Notes under the pieces: model-generated
What the model saw: only the letters and a program-made list of their open reading frames with translations
Told to the model about the DNA's origin: nothing
Databases searched by the model: none
Part shown: piece by piece, positions 6,295 through 22,629 of the stretch
Layout: each line of letters begins with the position of its first letter
Position numbering within the stretch: position 1 is the first letter of the stretch
Assembly: GCA_963977015.1 (NCBI GenBank)
Contig: CAXBMO010000010.1
Span: 64,001 to 128,000 of the forward strand
DNA from: an uncultured bacterium
Lineage (GTDB): Bacteria > Verrucomicrobiota > Verrucomicrobiia > Verrucomicrobiales > DEV007
Direction: 5' to 3'
DNA length: 64,000 bases
Position numbers and translations under genes: made by a program

Positions 6295-8982
6295 ATGAAG
6301 CATTGCGTCGTCAATGTTTCCCTGTTCCTCATCGGAACGCTCTCCGCGGAAGTCAGCGAAGGAGAGAAGCTCTTCGCGTTAAAGGTAAACCCGATTTTTG
6401 CTGAGAAGTGCAATGCTTGTCATGGCGATGAACCTGACAAGATAAAGGGCGGTTTTGATATGCGGACGTTGGAGTCAATGCTGAAAGGTGGGAAAACTTT
6501 CGCGGATGAGGTGCTGATACCTGGAAAAGGAGAGGAAAGCTTTCTCTATATCACGACGACGCGTCGGGAAGTGGACTATGAGATGCCGCCCAAGGAAGCG
6601 GAGCAACTGACTCAGGAACAGCAATGGTGGATTCGGGATTGGATCAATGAAGGCGCGCCGTGGCCGGGCGAAGAACGCATTGCTTTGATTCAGGAGAAAT
6701 ATGCGAAAGGTTTGCAAGTTAAGACATCAAAGGCGCTTTCGGAAGATTGGCAGAATCGACGCTACGAGCCGGAGAAACTGTGGGCCTATCATCCACTGAA
6801 AAGTGCTTCAGTTCCGGAGGGCGAACATCCTGTCGATTTTTTTATCAATCACAAGCTGATGGAAGCGAAGTTGGAACCTGCTCCAAATGCTGAGCCAAGA
6901 GAACTCGCCCGCCGGCTTCGCTTTGGCTTGACCGGCTTACCCCCGACTCCGGAGGAGGTGAAGGCCTTCGTCGATGGATACCACACCATTCCTGGGAAGA
7001 CAGTTCAGAGCTTTGCGGCTGAGTTGATGGCAAAGCCGCAGTATGGCGAACATTTTGGCCGCCATTGGCTGGACGTGACTCGCTATGCGGATTCCGCCGG
7101 ATTTGCCAACGATTACACCCGGCCGAATGCCTGGCGGTATCGCGATTATGTCGTGCGTTCGTTCAACGGCGACAAGCCGTATGATCAGTTCGTTCGGGAA
7201 CAAATTGCGGGCGACGAACTGGAGGAAACGAATCCGGAGAACCTGATTGCGACCGGATTTCTGCGGATGGGGCCGTGGGAACAAACCGGAATGAGCGTCT
7301 TCCGGGAGACCCGGCAAATGTGGTTGGATGACGTGACGGATTCGGTCGGCCAGACCTTTCTCGCTCACGCTCTGCAATGCGCGAAATGTCACGACCACAA
7401 ATTCGATCCCATTCCAACGCGGGACTATTACAGCATGATGGCGGTGTTTTCGACCACGCAATTTGTGGAGCGCAACGCCCCGTTTCTCCCACCGGAAAAT
7501 CAGACGGGTTTTTCGTCATCGGACCAATGGGTCAACGCCAAGTTGGCTTCCTACCAGCGGCAACAGAAAGCTCTCAAGGAGAAGGTGGCGAAACTCCGAA
7601 AAGCAGAATCGGGTTCGGCTAGAGTGGGGGACAACGGTCTTGATCCTGGCGACGAAGCTTCCCTGGCCAGAATGAACAAAAACTTGTCGCGCCATCGTTG
7701 GGAGTTGGATCGCACGAGGCCAATCGCCTTTTCGGTTTATACCGGAAGCACGATCACGCGAAAGAACGTTGGAAACCGAATCCCAATGCCGAAACATCGA
7801 TGGGAGCTTGGTCGGATGGAAACGGATGCGATTCTGGCAGGTGGCGATGTCTACTCTCCCTCCGATCCGGTGCATCCAGCACCACTGAGTGCGGCGGTGA
7901 GTCTTGGCGAAATGGAGGGGTCGACGTTTCCCGCCGGTCAGGGCAAGCGACGGCTTGCGCTGGCGAATTGGATCGTCGATCCCGGGAATCCACTCACCGC
8001 CCGGGTGCTGGTCAACCGGGTTTGGTCGTGGCATTTTGGGGTTGGCCTGGCCGGCAATCCCAACAACTTTGGAGGAACGGGAGGCCTGCCAACCCATCCC
8101 CGGTTGCTCGACTATCTTGCCAACTGGTTGATGGAAAATGACTGGTCGGTGAAGAAGCTGAATTCGCTGATCCTGAGTTCCGAGGCGTATCGCCGCAGCA
8201 GTCGGCATCCGAATCCACCCCTTCACTTGGCGCGCGATCCCAAATTGGAGAAATACGCAACCTTTCGTCCCCGGCGGTTGATTGCCGAGGAACTTCGCGA
8301 TGCCATGTTGGCGGTGAGCGGGGAATTGAATCCGCAGGTCGGCGGCATCCCGGCAAGACCGGACATGAACGAGGAAGTTGCCATGCAACCGCGCCAGATC
8401 ATGGGAGGAACGGCATCGGTTTACGAGCCGGATCCACTGCCGGAACAGCGAAACCGGCGCAGCATCTATGCGGAGAAAGTCCGGGGCTTGCGGGACCCAT
8501 TCCTCGAGACATTCAATCAACCCGGCCCTGATAATTCGTGCGAACTTCGGGAAACGTCGACCGTGGCTCCGCAGGCCTTGACGCTCTTCAACGCGGAGGA
8601 AGTGCAGGATCGGGCGATTGCGTTCGCGAAACGATTGACTGAGGAGGGCAATCCCGCCGAAAAAACAATTCAACGGGCATTCGAACTCGCCCTGGCGCGG
8701 AGCCCTTCCGAAGAGGAGCTCGCAACCTGCCTTACCCACTGGGAAACCATGGCTCGGGAGGAGGCGTCTTCGAACCACGAGCCCAAAAGCTTTCCAATCC
8801 GGATCAAGCGGACCGTGATGGCCGAGAAGACCGGCGAGCCCTACGACTTCTTCGAAGAAATGCCCGCTTTCGAAAACTATCAGCCCGACACCCAGCCCAT
8901 CGATGTCGATCCGAAAACGCGGGGCCTAGCCCAAGTCTGCCTCGTGATTTTCAACCTGAATGAATTTGCTTACCTGGATTGA
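6295..8982 (+). CDS. Planctomycete cytochrome c protein (PSCyt1 + DUF1549 + DUF1553)
   Basis: Signal peptide; CNACH and CAKCH heme motifs; YGEHFGRHWLDVTRYADS; NPLTARVLVNRVW; PTHPRLLDYLA. Confidence 0.92.
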   Translation: MKHCVVNVSLFLIGTLSAEVSEGEKLFALKVNPIFAEKCNACHGDEPDKIKGGFDMRTLESMLKGGKTFADEVLIPGKGEESFLYITTTRREVDYEMPPKEAEQLTQEQQWWIRDWINEGAPWPGEERIALIQEKYAKGLQVKTSKALSEDWQNRRYEPEKLWAYHPLKSASVPEGEHPVDFFINHKLMEAKLEPAPNAEPRELARRLRFGLTGLPPTPEEVKAFVDGYHTIPGKTVQSFAAELMAKPQYGEHFGRHWLDVTRYADSAGFANDYTRPNAWRYRDYVVRSFNGDKPYDQFVREQIAGDELEETNPENLIATGFLRMGPWEQTGMSVFRETRQMWLDDVTDSVGQTFLAHALQCAKCHDHKFDPIPTRDYYSMMAVFSTTQFVERNAPFLPPENQTGFSSSDQWVNAKLASYQRQQKALKEKVAKLRKAESGSARVGDNGLDPGDEASLARMNKNLSRHRWELDRTRPIAFSVYTGSTITRKNVGNRIPMPKHRWELGRMETDAILAGGDVYSPSDPVHPAPLSAAVSLGEMEGSTFPAGQGKRRLALANWIVDPGNPLTARVLVNRVWSWHFGVGLAGNPNNFGGTGGLPTHPRLLDYLANWLMENDWSVKKLNSLILSSEAYRRSSRHPNPPLHLARDPKLEKYATFRPRRLIAEELRDAMLAVSGELNPQVGGIPARPDMNEEVAMQPRQIMGGTASVYEPDPLPEQRNRRSIYAEKVRGLRDPFLETFNQPGPDNSCELRETSTVAPQALTLFNAEEVQDRAIAFAKRLTEEGNPAEKTIQRAFELALARSPSEEELATCLTHWETMAREEASSNHEPKSFPIRIKRTVMAEKTGEPYDFFEEMPAFENYQPDTQPIDVDPKTRGLAQVCLVIFNLNEFAYLD

Positions 8983-8984
8983 TC

Positions 8985-10394
8985 ATGACGGAGAAAACCA
9001 GACCGCTCTTTGCCATGCCGCAACGCCGTGAGTTCCTCTATGGACTCGGAGCCGGGTTGGGTTCCGTCGCCCTTCATTCGATGTTGCAGGCCGATGAAGG
9101 AAGCAAACCTCTCAACCAGCCCCACCATCCGGCGAAGGCAAAACGCTGCATCTTTCTGATGATGGAAGGAGGTCCCTCGCACATTGATACCTTCGATCCG
9201 AAGCCCGAGCTCACGAAAAGACATCTTCAAAAGTTCTCGCGCAGTGGTGAAATGGAAAGCGCCATGTCCTCCGGGCAGAGATACTTTGTGAAGAGCCCCT
9301 TTGAATTCATTCGGGCCGGGAAAAGCGGCGCGGATATCAGCACCGAATGGGCGCATCTCAAGGATCGGGTTGATGACATTTGTTTCTATCGTGGGGCACA
9401 GGTTGATTCCGTGAACCACCCGACCGCTTGCTATCAACTGAATACCGGAAACCGCTTTGGCGGTGATCCCGCCGTGGGGGCGTGGGTAACGTATGGGCTG
9501 GGAACTCTCAACGAGAATCTTCCGGGCTTCGTCGTTCTCCCTCGAACCAGTTATCCTCAGGGAGGGGCCGGGAATTGGTCGAACGGCTATCTGCCGGCTG
9601 ATTTCCAGGGAACCCCGCTTCGCCCCGAAGGGAGCCCGATTCTGGACCTGAACCCGCCACGGGGCGTAACGCGCGAACGTCAGCGCAGCAATCTCGACCT
9701 CTTGGCGAAACTCAATCAAACGCATCTTGAGGCCCGCCCCGGACGCAGTGAATTGGAGGCCAGAATGTCCTCCTATGAACTCGCCTATCGGATGCAGATG
9801 GAGGTCCCGGGCGTGCTTGATCTGGAAGGGGAAAAAGCGTCCACGCTGGAAGCTTATGGGATTGGGGAGACCAAAACGGACGCCTTTGGCCGCAAGTGTT
9901 TGCTCGCCCGCCGCCTGGTGGAAAAAGGCGTCCGCTTCGTTCAAGCCTACGCGGGCAACTGGGACAGTCACGACTACATCCAGAAGGCGCATGGCTCCCT
10001 GATTCGAGCGGTCGACAAGCCAATCGCCGCGTTGCTGAGTGACCTCAAGAATCGCGGATTGCTCGAAGACACGCTCGTGGTTTGGTGCGGTGAATTCGGT
10101 CGAACTCCCGACAACGGCCTCCGCGGCGGCGGCCAATCCTACGGCCGGGATCACAATGCCAAAGCGATGACCATGTGGTTTGCCGGGGGCGGAGTGAACG
10201 CGGGTCACACCATTGGGGCGACCGACGAGCTTGGAGCCGAAGCGGTCGATTGTGTTCATCACATTCGCGATGTCCACGTCACCCTGTTGCATCTGCTGGG
10301 TCTGGACGACAATCGCCTGACCTACTACCACGCCGGCAGACACAAACAACTCAGTCAATTTGGAGGAGCCGTGATCCAGGAATTGATTGGATAG
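8985..10394 (+). CDS. DUF1501 protein (Tat-exported, sulfatase-like fold)
   Basis: RREFL twin-Arg; GGPSHIDTFDPKP; LLARRLVEKGVRFVQ; GEFGRTP; GRDHN. Confidence 0.93.
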   Translation: MTEKTRPLFAMPQRREFLYGLGAGLGSVALHSMLQADEGSKPLNQPHHPAKAKRCIFLMMEGGPSHIDTFDPKPELTKRHLQKFSRSGEMESAMSSGQRYFVKSPFEFIRAGKSGADISTEWAHLKDRVDDICFYRGAQVDSVNHPTACYQLNTGNRFGGDPAVGAWVTYGLGTLNENLPGFVVLPRTSYPQGGAGNWSNGYLPADFQGTPLRPEGSPILDLNPPRGVTRERQRSNLDLLAKLNQTHLEARPGRSELEARMSSYELAYRMQMEVPGVLDLEGEKASTLEAYGIGETKTDAFGRKCLLARRLVEKGVRFVQAYAGNWDSHDYIQKAHGSLIRAVDKPIAALLSDLKNRGLLEDTLVVWCGEFGRTPDNGLRGGGQSYGRDHNAKAMTMWFAGGGVNAGHTIGATDELGAEAVDCVHHIRDVHVTLLHLLGLDDNRLTYYHAGRHKQLSQFGGAVIQELIG

Positions 10395-10520
10395 GTGTAT
10401 GTTGTGCGAAAATATCCACGGCAAGTGGAATGGTTTTCAATTCGAGGAGAATTCTTGTTCTTTGAGAATTTTCAGCTTGTTGGAAATGTGCGAGGTCGAA
10501 GCCTGGACTACTACAGCGAA

Positions 10521-13500
10521 TCAACAACCATCGTTGGCGATATTTGCCTGAAGTTCTAACGCAATTGGCTCCTGAGTCTTCGCTGTTCGTTGAACGAGGG
10601 CAAAATACACTTTCCGTTCCTCAGAACCAACTTGGGGCGATCTGAAGTGTTCTTCCCAGAGCAAGGAAAGATACCGAGCCATCCAACGAGGAAGATCGCG
10701 GATCTGCCACCAATAGTCGGACGCCTCTTGAGCATAGTTTGCAACCTCGGACAGCATGTGTTTTCGAATTCTCTTTGCCGAATTCTCGCACAACCAAAAA
10801 AGAAAGGCTTCAGCTTCGAATTGGGAGTTCATTACACGGCTGCAGACATTTTCAATGCGCTCGACTGCAAGTTCAAGGATCTCGGCGTCCTCTTCTTGCC
10901 AGAGGCTACCGAGGTAGGGCGTTGAACCGATTAGAGACATCCAAAGAGAAGGCAATTTGTGTCCCGATCGGCCCTTCGGAATCCAGTTTTCCGACGCCAA
11001 ACAATGGTCCACCATTTCAATCCACCTGTGGGCGAAGAACCTCGCCTCCATCTTGTTCTTGGCTTCGTGGAACCAGTGACTTAGAAAGGCTTCGATCCAT
11101 GACTCTGCGTGCCTTCCGAGATCCAGAATGGGTTGCCAATATCTTTCTGGACTCTCAATGGGTTTCATCTGCGAAATAACTGTCGCGAGTCGCTGCAACA
11201 CCCACCTGTCTGAGTCATAGGGAATCCCTGCCTCTGTTACTTCTTGTGGGACGTGCTCTCCGTTTTTATCGAAGAATCGCGTGCCTGCTAGGCAGACGTC
11301 TAGAGCTTGATCCCAAAATTCCAAAAACACTGCACGTTCGGAATCATCAACCGCTTGATCGGGCAGAAATATATTAGCGAAAGTGCCGGCAATCTGAACC
11401 ATATCAACCTTAGGTATCTTGATCAGCAAATGTACTTTTTCGGCTAACAAGTGACGTGAGTGGTTTCCCGGAGACCAAAGTTTGCCATTCGATATAGCTC
11501 GCTCTGCCCATTTGGGAAGTCCGGCATCGAAGTCATAGCACAAAAATCGTTGCGCAACCTCAGATTCCCATTTCGAAGTATCGAGTTCCTCTTTCGAATA
11601 TTTGGAATCGGTAATTTCCCAGCGAATCACTGCCGATTCAAAGATCAAATTCACCAATTGCCAGAATCCGTCACCAAGTTCATTCCGTCGTTCAAAGGCA
11701 CGCGACACCAAGATGCCCGCCGCACTATAGTGTTTCGCAAAAGCCAATTGCAGAACCGCTTCGCGCACAGCTGTATTCTCTTGGTCTTCCACCCAGAGAG
11801 ATGGGACTGTGTCTGCGGCGAAATGTTCCCAAGTCTCTTGTCCTATCGCGTCGGGAGAATCAAATCGTGACCAAGCGGGCGGCTCTGCGAGAACATCAGC
11901 AAGTGTCTCAAGGCACCATTTCTCTTCATCGGGATGATCTTCAAGCCAGTCTCGATGCAGGAGAAACAAAACAGCAATCGTTCCCAGTAGGCTGTTCGCA
12001 ACTGGTGAAAGTTCTAATACGTCTTCGTCTTCAGGCTCAAATCCCGCCAGGTCCTTCGCTTGCCGGATGAATGCGGGAATTTCTTCTTCTCCAAGCGTTT
12101 GTCCCTGAGAAATCATATTCCTACAGGTTAGGGGGAGTGAAATCAGCAGCATTTGCTTTTCATTACGAGAGATCACCTCCGGATCAGGTGCTAGATGCTC
12201 CGGAGGATAGTAGGAGAGGACTTTTCTTCCATCGGGCAGGCTGTCTTCTTTCCAGTTCTGCTCGTCAAATTGTGCAATCAACGCTTCCAGATTAGCCCGC
12301 CTTCGTTCATCAACAGGCTGTTCCAACTTGCTCCAGGCAATCCGCGCAGCAGAAAGAACTGTTCTTGTCTCTGGGTGATGGTGAAAGTGGTGAGCTGCAA
12401 TTTGAACAAGCTCACGTTTTCTGTGTTCCATTGCGTCCCATTCTCGAGCTAGATTGAAGAACCATTCCCCTTCGAGAAACGAAGCGCCAGTGCCCATCAG
12501 CGCGCCCCCACCCCTTAGGAAACGCCTGTCCTCAAAGTAGATCTCCGGAACCAGAAGCAAGGGCCTCAACAGGCCGGCGAAGAGGTTTGGCGAGAATTTG
12601 CCAACCTCACAAAGCACCCCGAGAAAAGCCACCGATCGACTTGCTGTCAAGATTAGTTCAATCGCCGATGAGACATCCTGCTCCTTTTCCAGATTAAGAT
12701 ACAACCACTTCTCCACAGCCATTAGCGCTGACGACGTAATTTCCGTTTGCGAATGTCCGTGGTACCAGTGAAATACGTCAGGATCGCCTACAAAATGCCG
12801 TATCCCATCGGGAAGGGAAATATCAATACCGACGTTACGGCTACTTTCCTCGTATCGGGACTCCATCCAACGCTCAGTAGCAAAGTCAACTAAACGAATG
12901 ATAGTCTGCAGTGCGGCCTCTACGCTTGCCCATAGAAATCGGAGAAAAGGTCCTCTTGTATAAAATCTCGGAGAGAAGCTGTGGACACGCTCAAGGCCGA
13001 CCTCTTCCTCCCGCAGCTTCATCCAACGATGGTCCGGTGGTTCCTTTTTTGATGGGCGGTACTCAATCAGCAATGCCAGGATAATCTCCTGTGCAAGGTC
13101 TGGCGCGGTCACCATAATGACATTTAGCGCATCCGAGTCCAAACAAGTCGAACGGAACGAATCGCAAACACGGATACATGGTCCTTCAGGCCAAGGTGGC
13201 TGCTCGGTCTCAATCCAACCTTGAAAGCTAGAAGTTACGCGGGCTACTGTCCCGGGTGGCCGATAGCCTTCAAATAGTTTTCCATCTTCCTTTGTGGGCT
13301 TAACTCGCCCAGCAGCTTTAAGTAACAGGTTTCGCACATCATCTGGCCGAACTGAGAAGGCTTCAATCAATGCCTTGTAAGGCAACTTTTCGGCATCCTT
13401 AGGAGCGCGGTAGTAAAATGTATCTACGCACATTTCTTGGGTGGCAAGGTCAATTGCAAGGGCCGCGGCCTCTTGCCGACCAGGCCAGTTCTCTCGGGTC

Positions 13501-15743
13501 GACCGGAGCCAAGTTCGAGCAATTCGAGCAGTCTCGGTAGGAGCAAGAGCGAGAACGTCCAGAGAATGGTTTGCCAGAGCGCCAACCACGCCGATCCAGT
13601 ACATGCCAAGTGGAATTCTTTCAACCGTTCGAGCTTCTTGCGGGTCTATTCCAGCTTGGATTGAGAGGGCCATGTAGCTGGGATTGGGCATGGATGCGAT
13701 GTGCTGAAAGCGCTTCAAATACGCATTCAAAAGTGTGCCATTATCCTCAGCCAACACCGACCAAACACTATCTAATAGCTTCCGGGCATTACCTGCAAAA
13801 ACTAGCGATTCGAGAAGAATATCGCGCCCACCTGGTGTTGCCAATACTGTTTCCTTCCACTGTTCGCCGGTATCATCGGTTTCAAGGAGATACAGTCCAT
13901 ACAACCGAATAGCCGCGTGCCAGTGCGGAATTGAGAAGCGTGTTTTGCAATACTGTTCAAGGCTCTCATCCTGGGTTGTAATTGCGCGAAACCTCGCCCA
14001 GTCAGAAATCAAATCGTGCGTGAAAGAAACCGTTCCGCGATCATGATCGGTTTTCAGGAAATTCGAGGACTGACTGACCAAATCAAGCTCCTCACCGGTA
14101 AGTTCTGCTTCAGGCACCTCAAACTGTCCCAGGTCCGCATTTTGAATCGCTAGTTTTTGTAGGAGTTGATCTCGGTGTGCACTCTTGGGACCAGATCGCA
14201 CCGAGTTGCGCCAATACCACGCAATCATTTCGGTTTCTCCAGTGATTGCCTGATGGTTTGGTACGTGTCCCTGAGCAACGGCGCCACACAAGAGATCGAG
14301 CACCTTAAGGTTCTGCATCCATCGAGTAAGGTGTGGACGTTGAGCCAGGCTTCTAAGCGTTGAGAACTCGCGCCAGACAGGCTCCAAGGATTCGAAGGTT
14401 GGAAGATCGATTGTTAACGTATTCCATGTGACTCGATGCCCAAATTGCAGGATGGTTTCAAGGCTTACACGCTCCCACGACTCCTCCCTTGCCGTAACCA
14501 AGAATCTCCAGGTGCATCCGGAGTCGGAAAGCGAAACCATATTCAGAAGCAGACTCAACTCCGCAAAATGCGTTTCTTCCTGCAGCCTTTCAGCGTTGTC
14601 GAGGATGATCAACCCGCGGCGATGTCGGCCACTCGCCAAGACTTCCCTCAAGGTATGATCCAAATTCTGGTGCGAAGCCAATGCCTCGACATAGCCTGGT
14701 CTCATCAACTCGCCCTTGAGCCAGATCACGTCACCGGATTCTTCAAACTCTTTGGCTACTGCCTTCGCAATGGCCGATTTTCCAGTGCCTGACGGACCAA
14801 TGAGCGCGACAAAACGCGATTCAAATTGCCCCATCACCTTGGAAACTAAGGCATCACGATTGATCGCTACCGTTCCGGCCATCCGATGCGGTATTGCGTC
14901 CACTTGGGTGCCCATCCACTGAGACAACTTCTCCCAATCGCGCGCAAAATCAGGAAAATCTCGAAGTTCAACAATCTTGCGTGCCTCTTGCCTGAGTTCT
15001 TCACACGTCAAACCGCCACCAGCCCTTCGCACTTCCTGGGCGATGCGGCACAAGCGGTCCCACAATCGACCGCTATCAGCAGTTGATCCGCTTTGGACAA
15101 GGTGGGAGCAAATGAAGCGAGCCAATGCTTCCGATGAAGAATCCGTGTGTTCGAAATCCAATTCCACCACCGACATCTTTTTCAAAATTCGGCCAGGAAG
15201 CTTTTCATACTCCTGGAGTTCTTCGGATAGATCATCGGGACAAGCACATGAATCGTGAATGCTTCGTTCGGCTGGGGAAGCGTAGCCCGAGGTAAAAAGG
15301 CGTTCAGCAAGTTGAGCCGGTGTTTGCCATCTGGCTTTCAACAGAAGGCTTTGAATCGCCACCTTCGGCGGATCGGGGTGGGGAACACAGATTAGACCAA
15401 ACCCGTCTAAATCTTCGTCCATCACTTCCGATGAGCGATGCAAAAGAAGCTCCCACGCAGCCCTAACCAAAGTAGTTGGAGCGGCTACTTTCGTAAATTG
15501 GAGATTGCTCTTAATTGAAAGCGCTGTGTGATGGTTACCGCGCTCGCTGATCGTAAGCAGCAGGTCATCCAACCCATTCCAACCATCTACTTGCGTTTGG
15601 CAGTCGATCCGCTCGATGGTCCCGTTGGCCCTGAACGGCGAAGTACCAGCAAGCATCCAAACCAAATAGTAGGCAACCACCTGGTCCTCGTAAGAGAATC
15701 CTCCTCCAGCGGTTTGCTTTGGTGCTGCGACATCCTTCACCAC
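10521..15743 (-). CDS. Avs/NLR-like STAND NTPase with N-terminal putative PD-(D/E)xK nuclease and long helical C-terminus; likely antiphage
   Basis: 1740-aa ORF; N-terminal GGGFSYE...LDDLLL...ALSIK; Walker A GPSGTGKS; Walker B IILDNAE; LVTAR; FTHDLISDW; visibly more AT-rich than flanks. Confidence 0.75.
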   Translation of the reverse strand: MVKDVAAPKQTAGGGFSYEDQVVAYYLVWMLAGTSPFRANGTIERIDCQTQVDGWNGLDDLLLTISERGNHHTALSIKSNLQFTKVAAPTTLVRAAWELLLHRSSEVMDEDLDGFGLICVPHPDPPKVAIQSLLLKARWQTPAQLAERLFTSGYASPAERSIHDSCACPDDLSEELQEYEKLPGRILKKMSVVELDFEHTDSSSEALARFICSHLVQSGSTADSGRLWDRLCRIAQEVRRAGGGLTCEELRQEARKIVELRDFPDFARDWEKLSQWMGTQVDAIPHRMAGTVAINRDALVSKVMGQFESRFVALIGPSGTGKSAIAKAVAKEFEESGDVIWLKGELMRPGYVEALASHQNLDHTLREVLASGRHRRGLIILDNAERLQEETHFAELSLLLNMVSLSDSGCTWRFLVTAREESWERVSLETILQFGHRVTWNTLTIDLPTFESLEPVWREFSTLRSLAQRPHLTRWMQNLKVLDLLCGAVAQGHVPNHQAITGETEMIAWYWRNSVRSGPKSAHRDQLLQKLAIQNADLGQFEVPEAELTGEELDLVSQSSNFLKTDHDRGTVSFTHDLISDWARFRAITTQDESLEQYCKTRFSIPHWHAAIRLYGLYLLETDDTGEQWKETVLATPGGRDILLESLVFAGNARKLLDSVWSVLAEDNGTLLNAYLKRFQHIASMPNPSYMALSIQAGIDPQEARTVERIPLGMYWIGVVGALANHSLDVLALAPTETARIARTWLRSTRENWPGRQEAAALAIDLATQEMCVDTFYYRAPKDAEKLPYKALIEAFSVRPDDVRNLLLKAAGRVKPTKEDGKLFEGYRPPGTVARVTSSFQGWIETEQPPWPEGPCIRVCDSFRSTCLDSDALNVIMVTAPDLAQEIILALLIEYRPSKKEPPDHRWMKLREEEVGLERVHSFSPRFYTRGPFLRFLWASVEAALQTIIRLVDFATERWMESRYEESSRNVGIDISLPDGIRHFVGDPDVFHWYHGHSQTEITSSALMAVEKWLYLNLEKEQDVSSAIELILTASRSVAFLGVLCEVGKFSPNLFAGLLRPLLLVPEIYFEDRRFLRGGGALMGTGASFLEGEWFFNLAREWDAMEHRKRELVQIAAHHFHHHPETRTVLSAARIAWSKLEQPVDERRRANLEALIAQFDEQNWKEDSLPDGRKVLSYYPPEHLAPDPEVISRNEKQMLLISLPLTCRNMISQGQTLGEEEIPAFIRQAKDLAGFEPEDEDVLELSPVANSLLGTIAVLFLLHRDWLEDHPDEEKWCLETLADVLAEPPAWSRFDSPDAIGQETWEHFAADTVPSLWVEDQENTAVREAVLQLAFAKHYSAAGILVSRAFERRNELGDGFWQLVNLIFESAVIRWEITDSKYSKEELDTSKWESEVAQRFLCYDFDAGLPKWAERAISNGKLWSPGNHSRHLLAEKVHLLIKIPKVDMVQIAGTFANIFLPDQAVDDSERAVFLEFWDQALDVCLAGTRFFDKNGEHVPQEVTEAGIPYDSDRWVLQRLATVISQMKPIESPERYWQPILDLGRHAESWIEAFLSHWFHEAKNKMEARFFAHRWIEMVDHCLASENWIPKGRSGHKLPSLWMSLIGSTPYLGSLWQEEDAEILELAVERIENVCSRVMNSQFEAEAFLFWLCENSAKRIRKHMLSEVANYAQEASDYWWQIRDLPRWMARYLSLLWEEHFRSPQVGSEERKVYFALVQRTAKTQEPIALELQANIANDGC

Positions 15744-16088
15744 TTTAAATACTCGTCCAGAAGCCTAACAAAGCAAGAACTCAGGAGATGCTCAGAACGC
15801 GTTCTTCATCCAATCACCAGAATGTGCGGCTTTTCGCTCACCACTCAGCCCTCGAACAAATTTACGATGCGTGGTAGATCTTTTTGATGTGGTTAACGCA
15901 TTGCTGGCGAAAATGAAGAACGTCCACGCCCAACAGGCTCTACGGTGTATCCCTGGGCTCATCGAAACGTTTACGGTCAACACGCTTAGCTGCTCCCGCC
16001 ACCCAAGCGAAAGCAATCCAACTGAGGTGATGCCGTCGCCTACATTTGGCGATTCAGCAATAAGCCGCGGCATCACCGAAGACCTTTA

Positions 16089-16211
16089 TTGAAATTGAAA
16101 TTGATCCAACGCCATGCCTACGGCTTCCGAAACTTTAACAACTACCGCCTGCGCGTCATTGCCGAGTGCGGATGAAAAACAGCAATCCCCCAAACTTTGA
16201 TGTGCCCGGCC
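16089..16211 (+). mobile_element. ISL3-family insertion sequence remnant (transposase C-terminus plus probable right end)
   Basis: 16089-16175 reads LKLKLIQRHAYGFRNFNNYRLRVIAECG*, the typical ISL3 transposase C-terminus; followed by TCCCCCAAACTTTGATGTGCCC, resembling a degenerate terminal repeat. Confidence 0.8.
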
Positions 16212-16219
16212 CAAAAAAG

Positions 16220-16291
16220 AGCCGAAGGTCGGAATTGAACCGACGACCTATTCATTACGAATGAATTGCTCTACCCCTGAGCTACTCCGGC
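16220..16291 (-). tRNA. tRNA-Thr(CGT)
   Basis: Reverse complement GCCGGAGTAGCTCAGGGGTAGAGCAATTCATTCGTAATGAATAGGTCGTCGGTTCAATTCCGACCTTCGGCT; anticodon loop TTCGTAA. Confidence 0.96.
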
Positions 16292-16305: not shown

Positions 16306-16333
16306 ATCATACCTTTTGGCTGCGAATTGTCAA
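16306..16333 (-). promoter_or_regulatory. Sigma70-type promoter of tRNA-Thr
   Basis: TTGACA-N16-TATGAT on the minus strand, 14 nt upstream of the tRNA. Confidence 0.75.
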
Positions 16334-17268
16334 CTGGTGGCCGCTTTCAAAGCCTTTCTCATGATGTCAACCGGTGCGTCTCGGTTGAACCAGTATTCGT
16401 AGGAGATGGCTCCCTGCCACAAAAGCATGCTGAGGCCGTTGGCGAAGCGGGCGCCCTGAGACTGGGCGTTGTCCAGAAACCGCGTGTGGGGCGGGCTGTA
16501 GACCATGTCGTAAACGAGATGGTGCGGCTGAATGAGGCGAGCCGGCAGCGGCTCCTGATCCGAGCGTTTCATCCCGAGGTTGGTCGCGTTGATGATGAGA
16601 TCCGTGTGGTCCAGTTGGTCCGCGAGCAGGGATTCGTCCCACGGGAGCGCTTCGAGCCGTTCAACCGGGCCAATGAGGGCATCGCCTTGAAAGTCCGCGG
16701 CGACTTCTTCCTTGATTGCTTCCGCCTTGGCGACGGTCCGATTGACGAGAACAAGTCGTTCGCATTGATCAATCGCACACTGAATGGTGACGGCACGCCC
16801 GGCGCCGCCTCCCGCTCCCAGGATCATGATTCGGAGGTCGTGCAGATCGACGGAAAATTCGTCGCGAATGGCTTGCCGGAAGCCCGGAGCATCGCTGTTG
16901 AAGCCGGCGATTTCGCCTGCATCAAAAACCAGGGTGTTGACGGCTCCGATGCGTTCGGCCACGGGATCGATGCGATCCACGAGTTTGGCGATCTCCGTTT
17001 TGTGGGGAATCGTCACATTGACTCCGAGGAAGCCGTGCTTTTGGAACAGTTGAACGGCTTCGGGAAGTTCGCCGGGCTTCAGGTGAATTCGGACGTATTC
17101 CGCATGGATCCCGGACGCTTTGAGGGCGGGATTGTGCATCTGGGGAGATGCGGAGTGTTCAACGGGATCGCCGATGACGGCGAGAAGGGGAGGTGGGTCG
17201 AGCTGTGAAGTGACAGTTTCCCAATCCTGCAAGTCTGAGAGATCGTAAACTGATTTTGCTTCAGCCAT
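16330..17268 (-). CDS. aroE: Shikimate dehydrogenase
   Basis: GDPVEHSASPQMHN, GVNVTIPHK, GAVNT, GAGGGAGRA, INATNLGM, YDMVY, GLSMLLWQG. Confidence 0.95.
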   Translation of the reverse strand: MAEAKSVYDLSDLQDWETVTSQLDPPPLLAVIGDPVEHSASPQMHNPALKASGIHAEYVRIHLKPGELPEAVQLFQKHGFLGVNVTIPHKTEIAKLVDRIDPVAERIGAVNTLVFDAGEIAGFNSDAPGFRQAIRDEFSVDLHDLRIMILGAGGGAGRAVTIQCAIDQCERLVLVNRTVAKAEAIKEEVAADFQGDALIGPVERLEALPWDESLLADQLDHTDLIINATNLGMKRSDQEPLPARLIQPHHLVYDMVYSPPHTRFLDNAQSQGARFANGLSMLLWQGAISYEYWFNRDAPVDIMRKALKAATS

Positions 17269-20811: not shown

Positions 20812-21973
20812 GCTGCGGCAGGAGAATCACGATCACCAGATTGAGAATTCCGACGAGGGCTGCGACCAGGATCAGGCTGGAAATGAGGACGAATCCAGCC
20901 TCAAACCCGACGAGAAGACGCAGGGTGGTTTGATCCGTTCCCAGGTTTGCGAGGCTTTCGAATTCCCGCGCTCGCAACCGGTGGGAGAGAACAAAAACGA
21001 GCGCGGCAATCAGGGATGCAGCGACAGCAACTGCGATGAGTGACGCGATCACCAGATTGCGGATCTGAAAGACCGTATTGAACAACTCCACCATCACCTG
21101 GTCCGGGCGGACGAGTTGGCCCGGGGCTGAGTCGGTCTGATAGCGGCCCAGCAAGATTGTCTCCGCCTTTTGGTCGCGAGGGATGATGATCGCGGCGGAG
21201 ATCGGAAGATCGCCGGGATCACCATGAAAATGGAAGCTCTTCACGTTGTCCGCGGTGATTTCCGTGAACTCGACAATTTTCGCGTTGATCGCCGTATTGT
21301 TCCCTTCCACATCGAGGATCTCGGATTCGGTGGCCTCATTGTGCCCGTGGGCGATACCTTCAATCACCCACGTTGTCTTGAGGTCACAGAAAATGGCACG
21401 ATCGTCGGAACTTCCCGATGGAGCCAGAACTCCGGTGATTCGCATTTTGAGCGGATAAACACCCGCGATATCAAAGGTCTGTTCCGGAGTCGAGGAGATG
21501 GTATCTCCGGGGCCGAGTTGGAGTTTCTGGGCAACTTCCGCCCCAAGCACGCAGTCTCCCAATCGTCCAAAAAGCCGGCCATCAGCGATCTCGAGGTCGC
21601 GAAATCGAAAGTAGTCAATGGAGGTTCCGACAATCCGATGTTTGCGCGCCTGGTAGCGAGCGTAGATCGGGATGTAGCGTCCCATGCCCTGGTCGGTTGC
21701 TTCCGCGGCCAGATTGGAAGTGATGTTCACCACATCAGGCTTGGAAAAATAGAGGCCGTTGAAAACCAGTTCCAAAGGGCTGCCGTGGCCGCCCAGCAAG
21801 AGCGGAGTCGCTTCAGCACGAGAACGCAGGTGAGCTTCCGCTTTGTGAACCAAGAGAAAAATTCCAATTGGCAGGAAAAGGCTCAACGTGATCGCGGAGA
21901 TCAAGAGGATGGCTTTCCCGCGATGTTGCAGGAGGTATCGCCAGCCAAGGTAGAGAATTCCGCGCAGGTTCAT
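20801..21973 (-). CDS. ABC transporter permease (MacB/FtsX-like)
   Basis: N-terminal TM, large periplasmic domain, C-terminal TMs with RAREFESLANLG; overlaps ATPase stop. Confidence 0.85.
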   Translation of the reverse strand: MNLRGILYLGWRYLLQHRGKAILLISAITLSLFLPIGIFLLVHKAEAHLRSRAEATPLLLGGHGSPLELVFNGLYFSKPDVVNITSNLAAEATDQGMGRYIPIYARYQARKHRIVGTSIDYFRFRDLEIADGRLFGRLGDCVLGAEVAQKLQLGPGDTISSTPEQTFDIAGVYPLKMRITGVLAPSGSSDDRAIFCDLKTTWVIEGIAHGHNEATESEILDVEGNNTAINAKIVEFTEITADNVKSFHFHGDPGDLPISAAIIIPRDQKAETILLGRYQTDSAPGQLVRPDQVMVELFNTVFQIRNLVIASLIAVAVAASLIAALVFVLSHRLRAREFESLANLGTDQTTLRLLVGFEAGFVLISSLILVAALVGILNLVIVILLPQLTA

Positions 21974-22629
21974 GACATCAGGGATGGCAGGTTGACCGTT
22001 CGCTCGAAATTTCCAAGAAGCTGGTGATCGTGAGTCACCATCAACAAGGTTGCCTTCTGTGCCTTGGCCTGACCAATGAGCAGGTCCACAATCCGTTGCT
22101 GATTGTCAGGATCGAGGCTGCCGGTGGGCTCATCGGCGAGGAGAAGCTTGGGACGAGTGATCAAGGCGCGACAAATCGCGACCCGCTGGCGTTCCCCCTG
22201 CGACAGCTGTTTTGGGTAAGCCTCGAGCAGCGCTGAAATCCCCGTTTCGCGGGCCAGGGAGTCCACCCGCTCGTGGAGATTCTCATTCGAGCTGAGCTTG
22301 GACGTCAGGTGAAACGGAAGGAGGATGTTGTCCCGGGCGGAAAGGTAGTCGAGCAACTCAAACTCCTGGAAAACCAGGCCAATGCTGGAGATTCGGAACT
22401 GGCGAATCTGGTGCTCGCTCAAGTCCGTCAACGACTCTCCCAAGACACGGAGATTTCCGTCCTGAGGACGCAAGATTCCTGCGATGAGACGAAGCAGGGT
22501 CGTTTTGCCGCAACCACTTGGGCCAACCACCGCAATGGTCTCCTCTTCTGCGGCAGCAAACTCACGAACCTGAAATTGGAAGCGTTCGTTGGGATAGCGA
22601 AAGCGGATGTTGTTCAACACCAGGGTCAC
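21970..22629 (-). CDS. ABC transporter ATP-binding protein (LolD/MacB-like)
   Basis: GPSGCGKT, LSQGERQRVA, LLADEPTGSLD, VTHD. Confidence 0.95.
   Translation of the reverse strand: MTLVLNNIRFRYPNERFQFQVREFAAAEEETIAVVGPSGCGKTTLLRLIAGILRPQDGNLRVLGESLTDLSEHQIRQFRISSIGLVFQEFELLDYLSARDNILLPFHLTSKLSSNENLHERVDSLARETGISALLEAYPKQLSQGERQRVAICRALITRPKLLLADEPTGSLDPDNQQRIVDLLIGQAKAQKATLLMVTHDHQLLGNFERTVNLPSLMS

Follow-up and report, generated by a model that had tools for sequence, protein, structure and literature searches.

A single reverse-strand gene in a 64,000-nucleotide stretch of DNA from an uncultured bacterium of the Verrucomicrobiota (contig CAXBMO010000010.1, positions 64,001 to 128,000; the whole stretch is referred to below as the window) encodes a protein of 1740 residues that is probably a stand-alone Avs receptor of the Avs4 lineage with a Cap4-type nuclease as its effector. 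The parts of this assignment are held with different degrees of confidence. A function in defence, for which we infer antiphage activity, is very likely, and a place in the Avs4 lineage is likely; the N-terminal domain can reasonably be expected to be an active DNA nuclease and is treated as the putative effector, and the phage portal protein is put forward tentatively as the trigger.

Overall architecture

The gene occupies positions 10521..15743 of the reverse strand and consists of 1740 codons, read without interruption from a GTG start codon at 15743, and a stop codon at 10521-10523, as given by the open reading frame (ORF) list and the translation. The start position is shared with the homologues, which begin with M-x-K-x-x-A-T-P-K-Q-T, and the identical protein is present in the database as entry P0002. 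The original prediction, made from the sequence of the gene, had described a nuclease domain followed by a STAND (signal transduction ATPases with numerous domains) nucleoside triphosphatase (NTPase) and a helical sensor, and this layout proved to be correct on the basis of folds and homology. Every motif that it had listed lies where it was placed and occurs once: GGGFSYE at residue 13, (L)DD at 58-60, SIK at 76-78, GPSGTGKS at 316, IILDNAE at 379, LVTAR at 415 and FTHDLISDW at 574. These motifs cannot be put down to chance, because they are invariant or nearly so both in a 29-sequence alignment of the family and in 151 N-terminal sequences.

STAND NTPase domain

Profiles from Pfam, NCBIfam and PADLOC place the STAND NTPase at residues 291-590 (13974..14873, reverse strand). 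The Walker A P-loop GPSGTGKS, located from the translation and the family alignment at residues 316-323 (14775..14798, reverse strand), is followed in this domain by the Walker B motif IILD, which contains D382, by LVTAR, which contains R419, and by FTHDLISDW, which contains H576. Residues G316, G319, G321, K322, D382, H576, D581 and W582 are invariant in the 29 sequences; at R419 the family consensus is T-C-R, and R419 is outside the listed columns that are at least 90% conserved. R419 and H576 are assigned their functions by analogy. The Pfam families AAA_22, nSTAND1, nSTAND3 and nSTAND5 match at residues 296-447, and NACHT and NB-ARC give weak matches.

The closest named relative of this domain is Avs4. 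Residues 291-590 align with positions 186-477 of the NCBIfam Avs4 profile (NF041815) with an E value of 2.2e-20 and 71.6 bits, the remaining members of the family score 58.8-116.8 bits on the same profile, and the PADLOC Avs4 model is matched with an E value of 6.6e-16. P0032, a divergent member of the family, aligns with positions 186-1052 of the NCBIfam Avs4 profile in a single stretch (E 4.9e-34). When a profile of the whole family was compared with the PDB, Avs4 chain 8dgf_A was found with an E value of 7.9e-30 and a best stretch covering query positions 291-815, and the next matches were generic P-loop proteins at an E value of 7e-6. Scans of the whole protein against Pfam, NCBIfam and PADLOC returned only P-loop, STAND, Avs4 and PADLOC candidate matches, all within residues 183-590. 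Judged from these profiles, the NTPase is homologous to the NTPase of Avs4. Within the coding region of the NTPase and winged helix there is also a 20-nucleotide inverted repeat, 95% complementary, with arms at 13792-13811 and 14144-14163 that are 332 nucleotides apart.

C-terminal sensor

Since the sequence libraries matched neither the N-terminal domain nor the C-terminal region, both were modelled by AlphaFold2. The C-terminal region, residues 591-1740 (10524..13973, reverse strand), is rich in tryptophan (3.6%) and leucine (11.1%), and its model, built from the 29-sequence alignment, is mostly helical, with a mean predicted local distance difference test score (pLDDT) of 87.7 and a predicted template-modelling score (pTM) of 0.73. 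In a Foldseek search the best match was 8dgf_B, Avs4 bound to the portal protein, with an E value of 3.1e-17 and template-modelling (TM) scores of 0.66 (TMq) and 0.52 (TMt), and the next match reached a TM score of only about 0.2. VIA-align superimposed 980 of the 1150 residues on 8dgf_A with a Z score of 25.5 and a root-mean-square deviation (rmsd) of 5.6 Å, model positions 1-1149 falling on chain positions 486-1587, and the next-best match had a Z score of 11.0. The C-terminal region of about 1150 residues is thus predicted to adopt the fold of the portal-binding sensor of EcAvs4 from end to end. A published rule for structural clusters of sensors, as given in the accessible part of PMC13581612, calls for 80% coverage in Foldseek, an E value of at most 1e-10 and a TM score of at least 0.40; the sensor groups with 8dgf under these values, a predicted model being compared here with the whole chain and not with an extracted sensor.

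N-terminal Cap4-type nuclease domain

The presumed effector spans residues 1-290 (14874..15743, reverse strand), with a folded core at about 10-270 that was delimited by AlphaFold2, Foldseek and VIA-align. The model of residues 1-300, built from a 28-sequence alignment, has a pLDDT of 86.9 and a pTM of 0.80. The top Foldseek matches are Cap4 (6wan; E 8.2e-7, probability 1.00), LmuA, HamA, the N-terminus of Avs3 and HerA-DUF4297. In VIA-align, model residues 10-270 superimpose on residues 15-239 of AbCap4 with a Z score of 14.1 and an rmsd of 3.7 Å over 197 aligned residues, and the N-terminus of Avs3, LmuA, HerA-DUF4297 and HamA follow with Z scores of 12.2-13.2. The top 16 rows all belong to Cap4, Avs3, LmuA, HerA-DUF4297 and HamA, and generic restriction enzymes reach Z scores of 5-7 only. 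On the basis of the model, the domain is assigned a PD-(D/E)xK fold of the Cap4/DUF4297 type.

The putative active site is formed around strands at residues 59-78 (15510..15569, reverse strand), as defined by the secondary structure of the model and by conservation. In the model E19 belongs to helix 1, strand 1 ends with Q49, strand 2 opens with D59-D60 and strand 3 closes with S76-I-K78; overall this is the usual PD-(D/E)xK arrangement. Conservation was followed in a set consisting of the window protein and the 150 best representatives matched by its N-terminal 290 residues among 1.84 billion proteins; this search gave 821 matches at E values of at most 1e-3, 150 of which were at 1e-30 or below. 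D60 is kept in all 151 sequences, D59 in 150, S76 in 149, K78 in 145, Q49 in 143 and E19 in 141. The S-x-K motif had been called atypical in the original prediction, and the comparison bears this out, as sister clades with the same N-terminal domain (P0033-P0046, including P0034) carry a canonical Q-x-K at the matching columns; P0034 itself scores 724.7 bits on the Avs4 model. Because the serine is fixed throughout the family in a site that is otherwise constrained, S-x-K is read as a probable working variant of the site and not as decay. The most divergent member, P0032, which is 23% identical, has Q-V-R in place of S-I-K, and its sequence seems to place it between the S-x-K family and the sister clades with Q-x-K.

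Distribution and exchange of the N-terminal domain

A word-indexed search found 31 full-length relatives of about 1720-1800 residues with identities of 25-58%, and 69 homologous loci came from a scan in which each species was represented by one genome. About 30 of these loci belong to lineages of the Acidobacteriota, 11-12 to the Planctomycetota and five to the Cyanobacteria; the others are from Gammaproteobacteria, Desulfobacterota/'delta', Armatimonadota, Actinomycetota, Verrucomicrobiota, Nitrospiraceae, Ktedonobacteraceae, Gemmatimonadales, Reyranella and Rubrivirga. The homologues are spread patchily across many phyla. The family comprises more than 80 full-length clusters at 50% identity, mostly from Acidobacteriota, Planctomycetota and Cyanobacteria, and the atlas clusters of the relatives are unnamed or are described only as hypothetical or as 'ATP-binding protein'. 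Among the 150 best N-terminal matches, 83 are at least 1500 residues long, and most of the shorter ones are probably fragments at contig ends.

The same NTPase and sensor are also found with other N-terminal domains: a CHAT protease in a Microcoleus homologue (L030:1871-7771, E 3.3e-25), a PNP_UDP_1 domain in the homologue at L056:6912-12449 (E 1.3e-13) and an EAD10 domain in a Symploca homologue (L008:8004-12740, E 2e-23). The Symploca homologue is adjoined by a caspase-domain gene and by a second EAD10-NACHT gene. A Rivularia homologue (L005:6796-12470) has a short N-terminus, and a separate CHAT gene is situated just upstream of it. The reading frame is broken in about eight of the 53 loci examined; at L007, L034, L049, L051, L058, L065 and L067 the tblastn match is far longer than the longest ORF. 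Such broken frames could be pseudogenes in decay or assembly errors in metagenome-assembled genomes (MAGs).

Neighbourhoods of the homologues

The protein appears to work without a partner encoded beside it. When 434 flanking ORFs from the 53 loci were clustered, no conserved neighbour was found, the largest cluster being present in six loci; this agrees with the single-gene nature claimed in the original prediction. A conserved partner gene, an idea taken from the name of the PADLOC candidate system PDC-M54, was rejected because no cluster of neighbours exceeds six of the 53 loci.

The two nearest ORFs on each side were compared with the PADLOC models for 37 of the 53 loci, which covered 128 of 186 such ORFs. 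At E values of at most 1e-6, 24 of the 128, in 19 of the 37 loci, matched models that include Dsr2, LmuB, an Avs1b-like STAND protein, type I and type IV restriction enzymes, methyltransferases, AbiEi, SoFic, Drt1a and pAgo, compared with one of 49 other ORFs of the window in the same pipeline (one-sided Fisher p = 0.002). The ATPase gene at 21973-22629 (reverse strand) of the window, beside a MacB-like permease gene, matches the PADLOC model 'mad3' with an E value of 7.6e-26. The mad3 model catches ordinary ABC ATPases, and so the mad3 matches at loci L017 and L045 are not counted as defence genes; with matches to mad3 alone dropped, the comparison becomes 22 of 128 against none of 49 (p = 0.0005). 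The enrichment beside defence genes that had been proposed as a check of the defence function was therefore found, and it is regarded as qualitative because kin are not independent, some loci are near-duplicates and the control is one genome.

Two of these neighbourhoods are of interest in themselves. In an Acidobacteriaceae MAG, a second large STAND gene (L029:13314-17493, forward strand) lies directly downstream of a member of the family; it resembles Avs1b (E 9e-24) and has a nuclease head of the LmuA/Cap4 type, so that two Cap4-headed STAND receptors stand in tandem. In a Pirellulaceae MAG (L042:3589-13624), the frame of the homologue is broken, with a longest ORF of 957 residues in a match of 1600 residues, and beside it lie a Drt1a reverse-transcriptase gene of full length (E 0) and a fragment of pAgo; the locus is thus a defence island, one member of which is possibly decayed.

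Genomic context of the gene

The gene looks foreign here and belongs to the accessory part of the genome. It was not found in 30 related genomes, three of them of the same genus; of the 31 genomes covered by the search, with G000 counted among them, 22 have a completeness of 90% or more. Its G+C content is 0.508 compared with 0.546 in the remainder of the window, its G+C content at third codon positions (GC3) is 0.507 compared with 0.62-0.66 in the five adjacent genes, and it forms the stretch of 5.2 kb with the lowest G+C content in the window, as expected from the earlier observation that it is more AT-rich than its neighbours. It stands alone between a DUF1501 gene and a tRNA-Thr gene (anticodon CGT; 16219..16291, reverse strand), identified by ARAGORN, whose 3' end faces the start of the gene and at which the synteny of the relatives stops.

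Between the start of the gene and the tRNA there is a stop-to-stop frame (16026..16175, forward strand) that encodes a C-terminal remnant of an ISL3-family transposase; it matches positions 219-240 of the 240 positions of Pfam PF01610 (DDE_Tnp_ISL3) with an E value of 2.9e-5 and 24.4 bits against a cut-off of 23. Short matches to about 16096-16203, 78-90% identical, occur on other contigs of the related genomes G002 and G003, as if related copies of the insertion sequence (IS) were active in the genus. A 107-residue frame upstream of the remnant (15769-16092, forward strand) has no Pfam match. The right flank from 16215 onwards, with tRNA-Thr, aroE and gltX, is conserved at 73-82% identity in G001, G002 and G003, the three genomes of the same genus, and 10395-16214 has no counterpart in these three genomes except for short matches resembling IS ends. 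In G001, a further PSCyt2/PSD1-DUF1501 pair and sucA/sucB come after the tRNA-Thr. The IS scar beside the 3' end of a tRNA, which had been noted from the sequence, is thus real, and the horizontal acquisition that had been proposed is supported by the low GC3, the absence from 30 relatives and the site beside tRNA-Thr and an IS remnant.

A clean empty site could not be demonstrated, because the flanks are on different contigs or are paralogous in G001-G005, and only the end of synteny at the tRNA can be shown. An integrase-type island with att repeats was rejected, as the tRNA 3' end is not repeated at the border of the insert; a single tRNA-like repeat was found, 73% identical, and it lies inside the gene. 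In the same part of the window, an ORF of 484 residues without a Pfam match (8970-10424, reverse strand) runs antisense over the whole DUF1501 gene (8979-10394, forward strand; Pfam E 2.7e-148) and can almost certainly be dismissed as a spurious shadow ORF. Another antisense ORF of this kind (16327-17208, forward strand) lies opposite the shikimate dehydrogenase gene.

Proposed mechanism

The mechanism is modelled on the solved complexes of Avs3, Avs4 and Avs7. As these proteins are described in the parts of the reports that were accessible, an autoinhibited monomer clamps a phage protein with its sensor, the NTPase forms a tetramer in an ATP-dependent manner, and the nuclease heads, gathered in this way, become active on double-stranded DNA; SeAvs3 and SeAvs7 carry Cap4 nucleases, the tetramerization of which is the activating step, and EcAvs4 (8DGF) has a nuclease of the Mrr type and the portal protein as its ligand.

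In an uninfected cell the present protein would be a closed, ADP-bound monomer with the nuclease held against the NTPase and the sensor. Upon infection, the helical sensor of 1150 residues would clamp a newly made, conserved phage protein, most likely the portal protein; binding would lift the autoinhibition, and ATP would be bound through K322 of Walker A, D382 of Walker B, R419 and H576. The NTPase domains would then drive oligomerization, probably to a tetramer, in which the Cap4-like heads are gathered into an active endonuclease of double-stranded DNA, with a putative site made up of E19, Q49, D59/D60 and S76-x-K78, and degradation of DNA by this nuclease would abort the infection. Observed support for this scheme comes from the folds, from the homology and from the fact that residues required at each step are conserved, and we infer the oligomerization and the nuclease chemistry from these. 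The portal protein is taken as the likeliest trigger on the ground that the EcAvs4 fold extends over the whole predicted sensor; with an identity of 11-14% and such different hosts, the specificity may nevertheless have been retuned.

Evaluation of the assignment and alternative explanations

A number of observations weigh against the assignment as a portal-sensing Avs4-type nuclease receptor. The score on the NCBIfam Avs4 profile, 71.6 bits, is far below the equivalog cut-off of 1500 and covers residues 291-590 only. Both the nuclease and the sensor are assigned from AlphaFold2 models for which the alignments were shallow, with 28-29 sequences; residues 1-300 have no Pfam match at an E value of 0.1 or below, the whole-protein scan shows none there at 1 or below, and the same scan gives no Pfam family for the sensor, the structure-based identity of which to 8dgf is 11-14%. 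Ser76 replaces the Glu/Gln of the (D/E/Q)-x-K motif. Proteins with one sensor fold need not bind one ligand; what is sensed varies from one Avs family to another, and the portal protein is also bound by Avs11, the sensor of which is unrelated (Nature 2026, as far as the accessible part of that report goes). The neighbours in the window are housekeeping genes of planctomycete type (DUF1501, PSCyt/PSD1, aroE and gltX) without a PADLOC match to a defence gene, and neither an integrase nor an att-like repeat of the tRNA end was found. The promoter scan gave no site upstream of the gene, and its six sites, where 4.0 ± 1.8 are expected, are not above chance, which also applies to the terminator scan. 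As to the homologues, the ORF calling was crude (longest first), the control was a single other genome, some PADLOC matches are unspecific, loci L023 and L025 are near-duplicates and about eight of the 53 homologous loci are frame-broken.

The explanation that competes most seriously keeps the receptor as the same kind of Avs protein and supposes that the sensor has diverged to a different phage protein or to a host perturbation in place of the portal, which would make it a separate Avs family in function. In favour of this are the low identity to EcAvs4 with an rmsd of 5.6-7.7 Å, a sensor that extends about 160 residues beyond the aligned part of 8dgf, an NCBIfam Avs4 alignment that in members of the family reaches only part of the sensor (about profile positions 725-1052), and hosts among the Planctomycetota, Acidobacteriota and Cyanobacteria, the phages of which are far from coliphages; moreover, alternative activators have been reported for some Avs proteins in the accessible parts of PMC13581612 and of an Avs2 preprint. 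We consider it rather unlikely, as the superposition runs from end to end with a Z score of 25.5 against 11.0 for other helical repeat proteins. Portal proteins are also structurally conserved across tailed phages, which counts against the same explanation. In the preprint version, where accessible, Avs1-4 are reported to recognize folds and not sequences. A stronger form, that of a functionally distinct Avs lineage in which an Avs4-fold sensor retuned to a non-portal trigger from the phages of these phyla, themselves little studied, is combined with an S-x-K head with a rearranged catalytic centre, is less likely again; if it were true, the missing residue might be recruited from E19 or Q49, and the use of metal or the preference for substrate might differ from those of canonical Cap4.

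It could also be supposed that the Cap4-fold head no longer cuts DNA and serves as a module for DNA binding or oligomerization, or has some other hydrolytic activity, given that serine occupies the position of the metal-binding or water-positioning Glu/Gln in 149 of the 151 sequences, that the closest sister clades retain Q-x-K and that no Pfam nuclease is matched; when 28 members of the family were compared with Pfam, a nuclease family was likewise absent among the 25 of 38 matched families listed. A dead site would hardly be expected to keep D59, D60, K78, E19 and Q49 in 141-151 of 151 sequences, and the family has neither another candidate effector domain nor a conserved partner gene, so that this explanation appears improbable. 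PD-(D/E)xK enzymes with S-x-K that obtain a glutamate from another position occur among the restriction enzymes of the Cfr10I/NgoMIV type and likewise count against it. A housekeeping or regulatory STAND ATPase of planctomycetes, and not an immune gene, might be suggested by the position of the gene among DUF1501, PSCyt/PSD1, aroE and gltX, by the lack of a defence gene in the window, the sole PADLOC match in 49 ORFs being the ABC ATPase, and by the existence of non-defence STAND clades (PMC13581612, accessible part). This is disfavoured and indeed very improbable: the gene was not found in the 30 related genomes, is patchy across phyla and has a foreign codon composition, and its family exchanges the head for CHAT, PNP and EAD10, lies in neighbourhoods rich in defence genes and is homologous to Avs4. 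The preferred assignment accordingly remains that of a stand-alone Avs4-lineage receptor with a Cap4-type nuclease.

The defence-receptor interpretation of the original prediction is thus supported. Its further suggestion, that the protein may represent an undescribed type not assignable to a named Avs, did not hold, as the NTPase is homologous to that of Avs4, the C-terminus is predicted to have the EcAvs4 sensor fold and the N-terminus is predicted to be a Cap4-type nuclease already known on Avs3 and Avs7. The prediction had itself stated that a strong full-length match to a described Avs type would remove its novelty, and the Avs4 and Cap4 matches therefore remove most of it. The findings nevertheless extend the Avs4 lineage beyond enterobacteria to Planctomycetota, Acidobacteriota, Cyanobacteria and other environmental phyla, in which antiphage immunity is almost unstudied, and they concern a family that is missed by current annotation models, its relatives being listed as hypothetical proteins. 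They also show natural swapping of effectors (nuclease, CHAT, PNP/UDP phosphorylase and EAD10) on one sensor scaffold, and the fixed S-x-K on a Cap4-type head poses a small question in nuclease chemistry.

Comparison with known systems

The protein is most similar to Avs4 (EcAvs4, 8DGF), with which it shares a single polypeptide of about 1600-1750 residues, a homologous STAND NTPase, the same predicted sensor fold and an N-terminal effector that is also of the PD-(D/E)xK superfamily. It differs in the type of effector, which is of the Cap4/DUF4297 type here, whereas that of EcAvs4 is described as Mrr-type in the accessible part of the literature. It differs also in the profile score (71.6 against 1500 bits), in the identity of 11-14%, in a sensor that is about 160 residues longer and in its hosts, which belong to environmental phyla and not to the enterobacteria. 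As the equivalog score is missed and the effector is different, the protein is best described as a distant Avs4-like relative and not as Avs4 proper.

With SeAvs3 (8DGC) and SeAvs7 it shares an N-terminal Cap4 nuclease fused to a STAND NTPase (the N-terminus of Avs3 aligning over 210 residues with a Z score of 13.2), although the targets sensed are terminase for Avs3 and the major capsid protein together with EF-Tu for Avs7, according to the accessible parts of those reports, and the S-x-K motif is found in the present protein. The nuclease fold is also that of Cap4 of CBASS, LmuA of Lamassu, HamA of Hachiman and DUF4297-HerA (Z scores of 10.7-14.1); these are activated by cyclic oligonucleotides or by SMC-like, helicase or ATPase partners and not by a fused STAND sensor, and the present protein has no Pfam match at the level of sequence. 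The PADLOC candidate PDC-M54A matches residues 183-380 partially and weakly (E 2.3e-12), and residues 14-383 of P0010 align with positions 19-392 of its profile. PDC-M54A and the Q-x-K sister clade (P0033, P0036-P0044 and P0046) are of similar length (profiles of 1621 and 1657 positions) and share the N-terminal domain, the linker, the NTPase and the G-G-x-F-x-Y-E, Q and D-D motifs, the sister clade being distinguished by the canonical Q-x-K in place of S-x-K. A literature search by name found no published description of PDC-M54.

A systematic survey of 359,879 STAND representatives defined 684 sensor clusters (PMC13581612, accessible part), and its supplementary tables may already include this clade and its sensor cluster. 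Effectors are described as modular across Avs families in the parts of the literature that were accessible; Avs proteins with Cap4 heads, the swapping of effectors and defence by a single STAND gene are already established. In its architecture, its likely mechanism and its modular principle the present protein follows what is known for Avs, and it does not form a new category.

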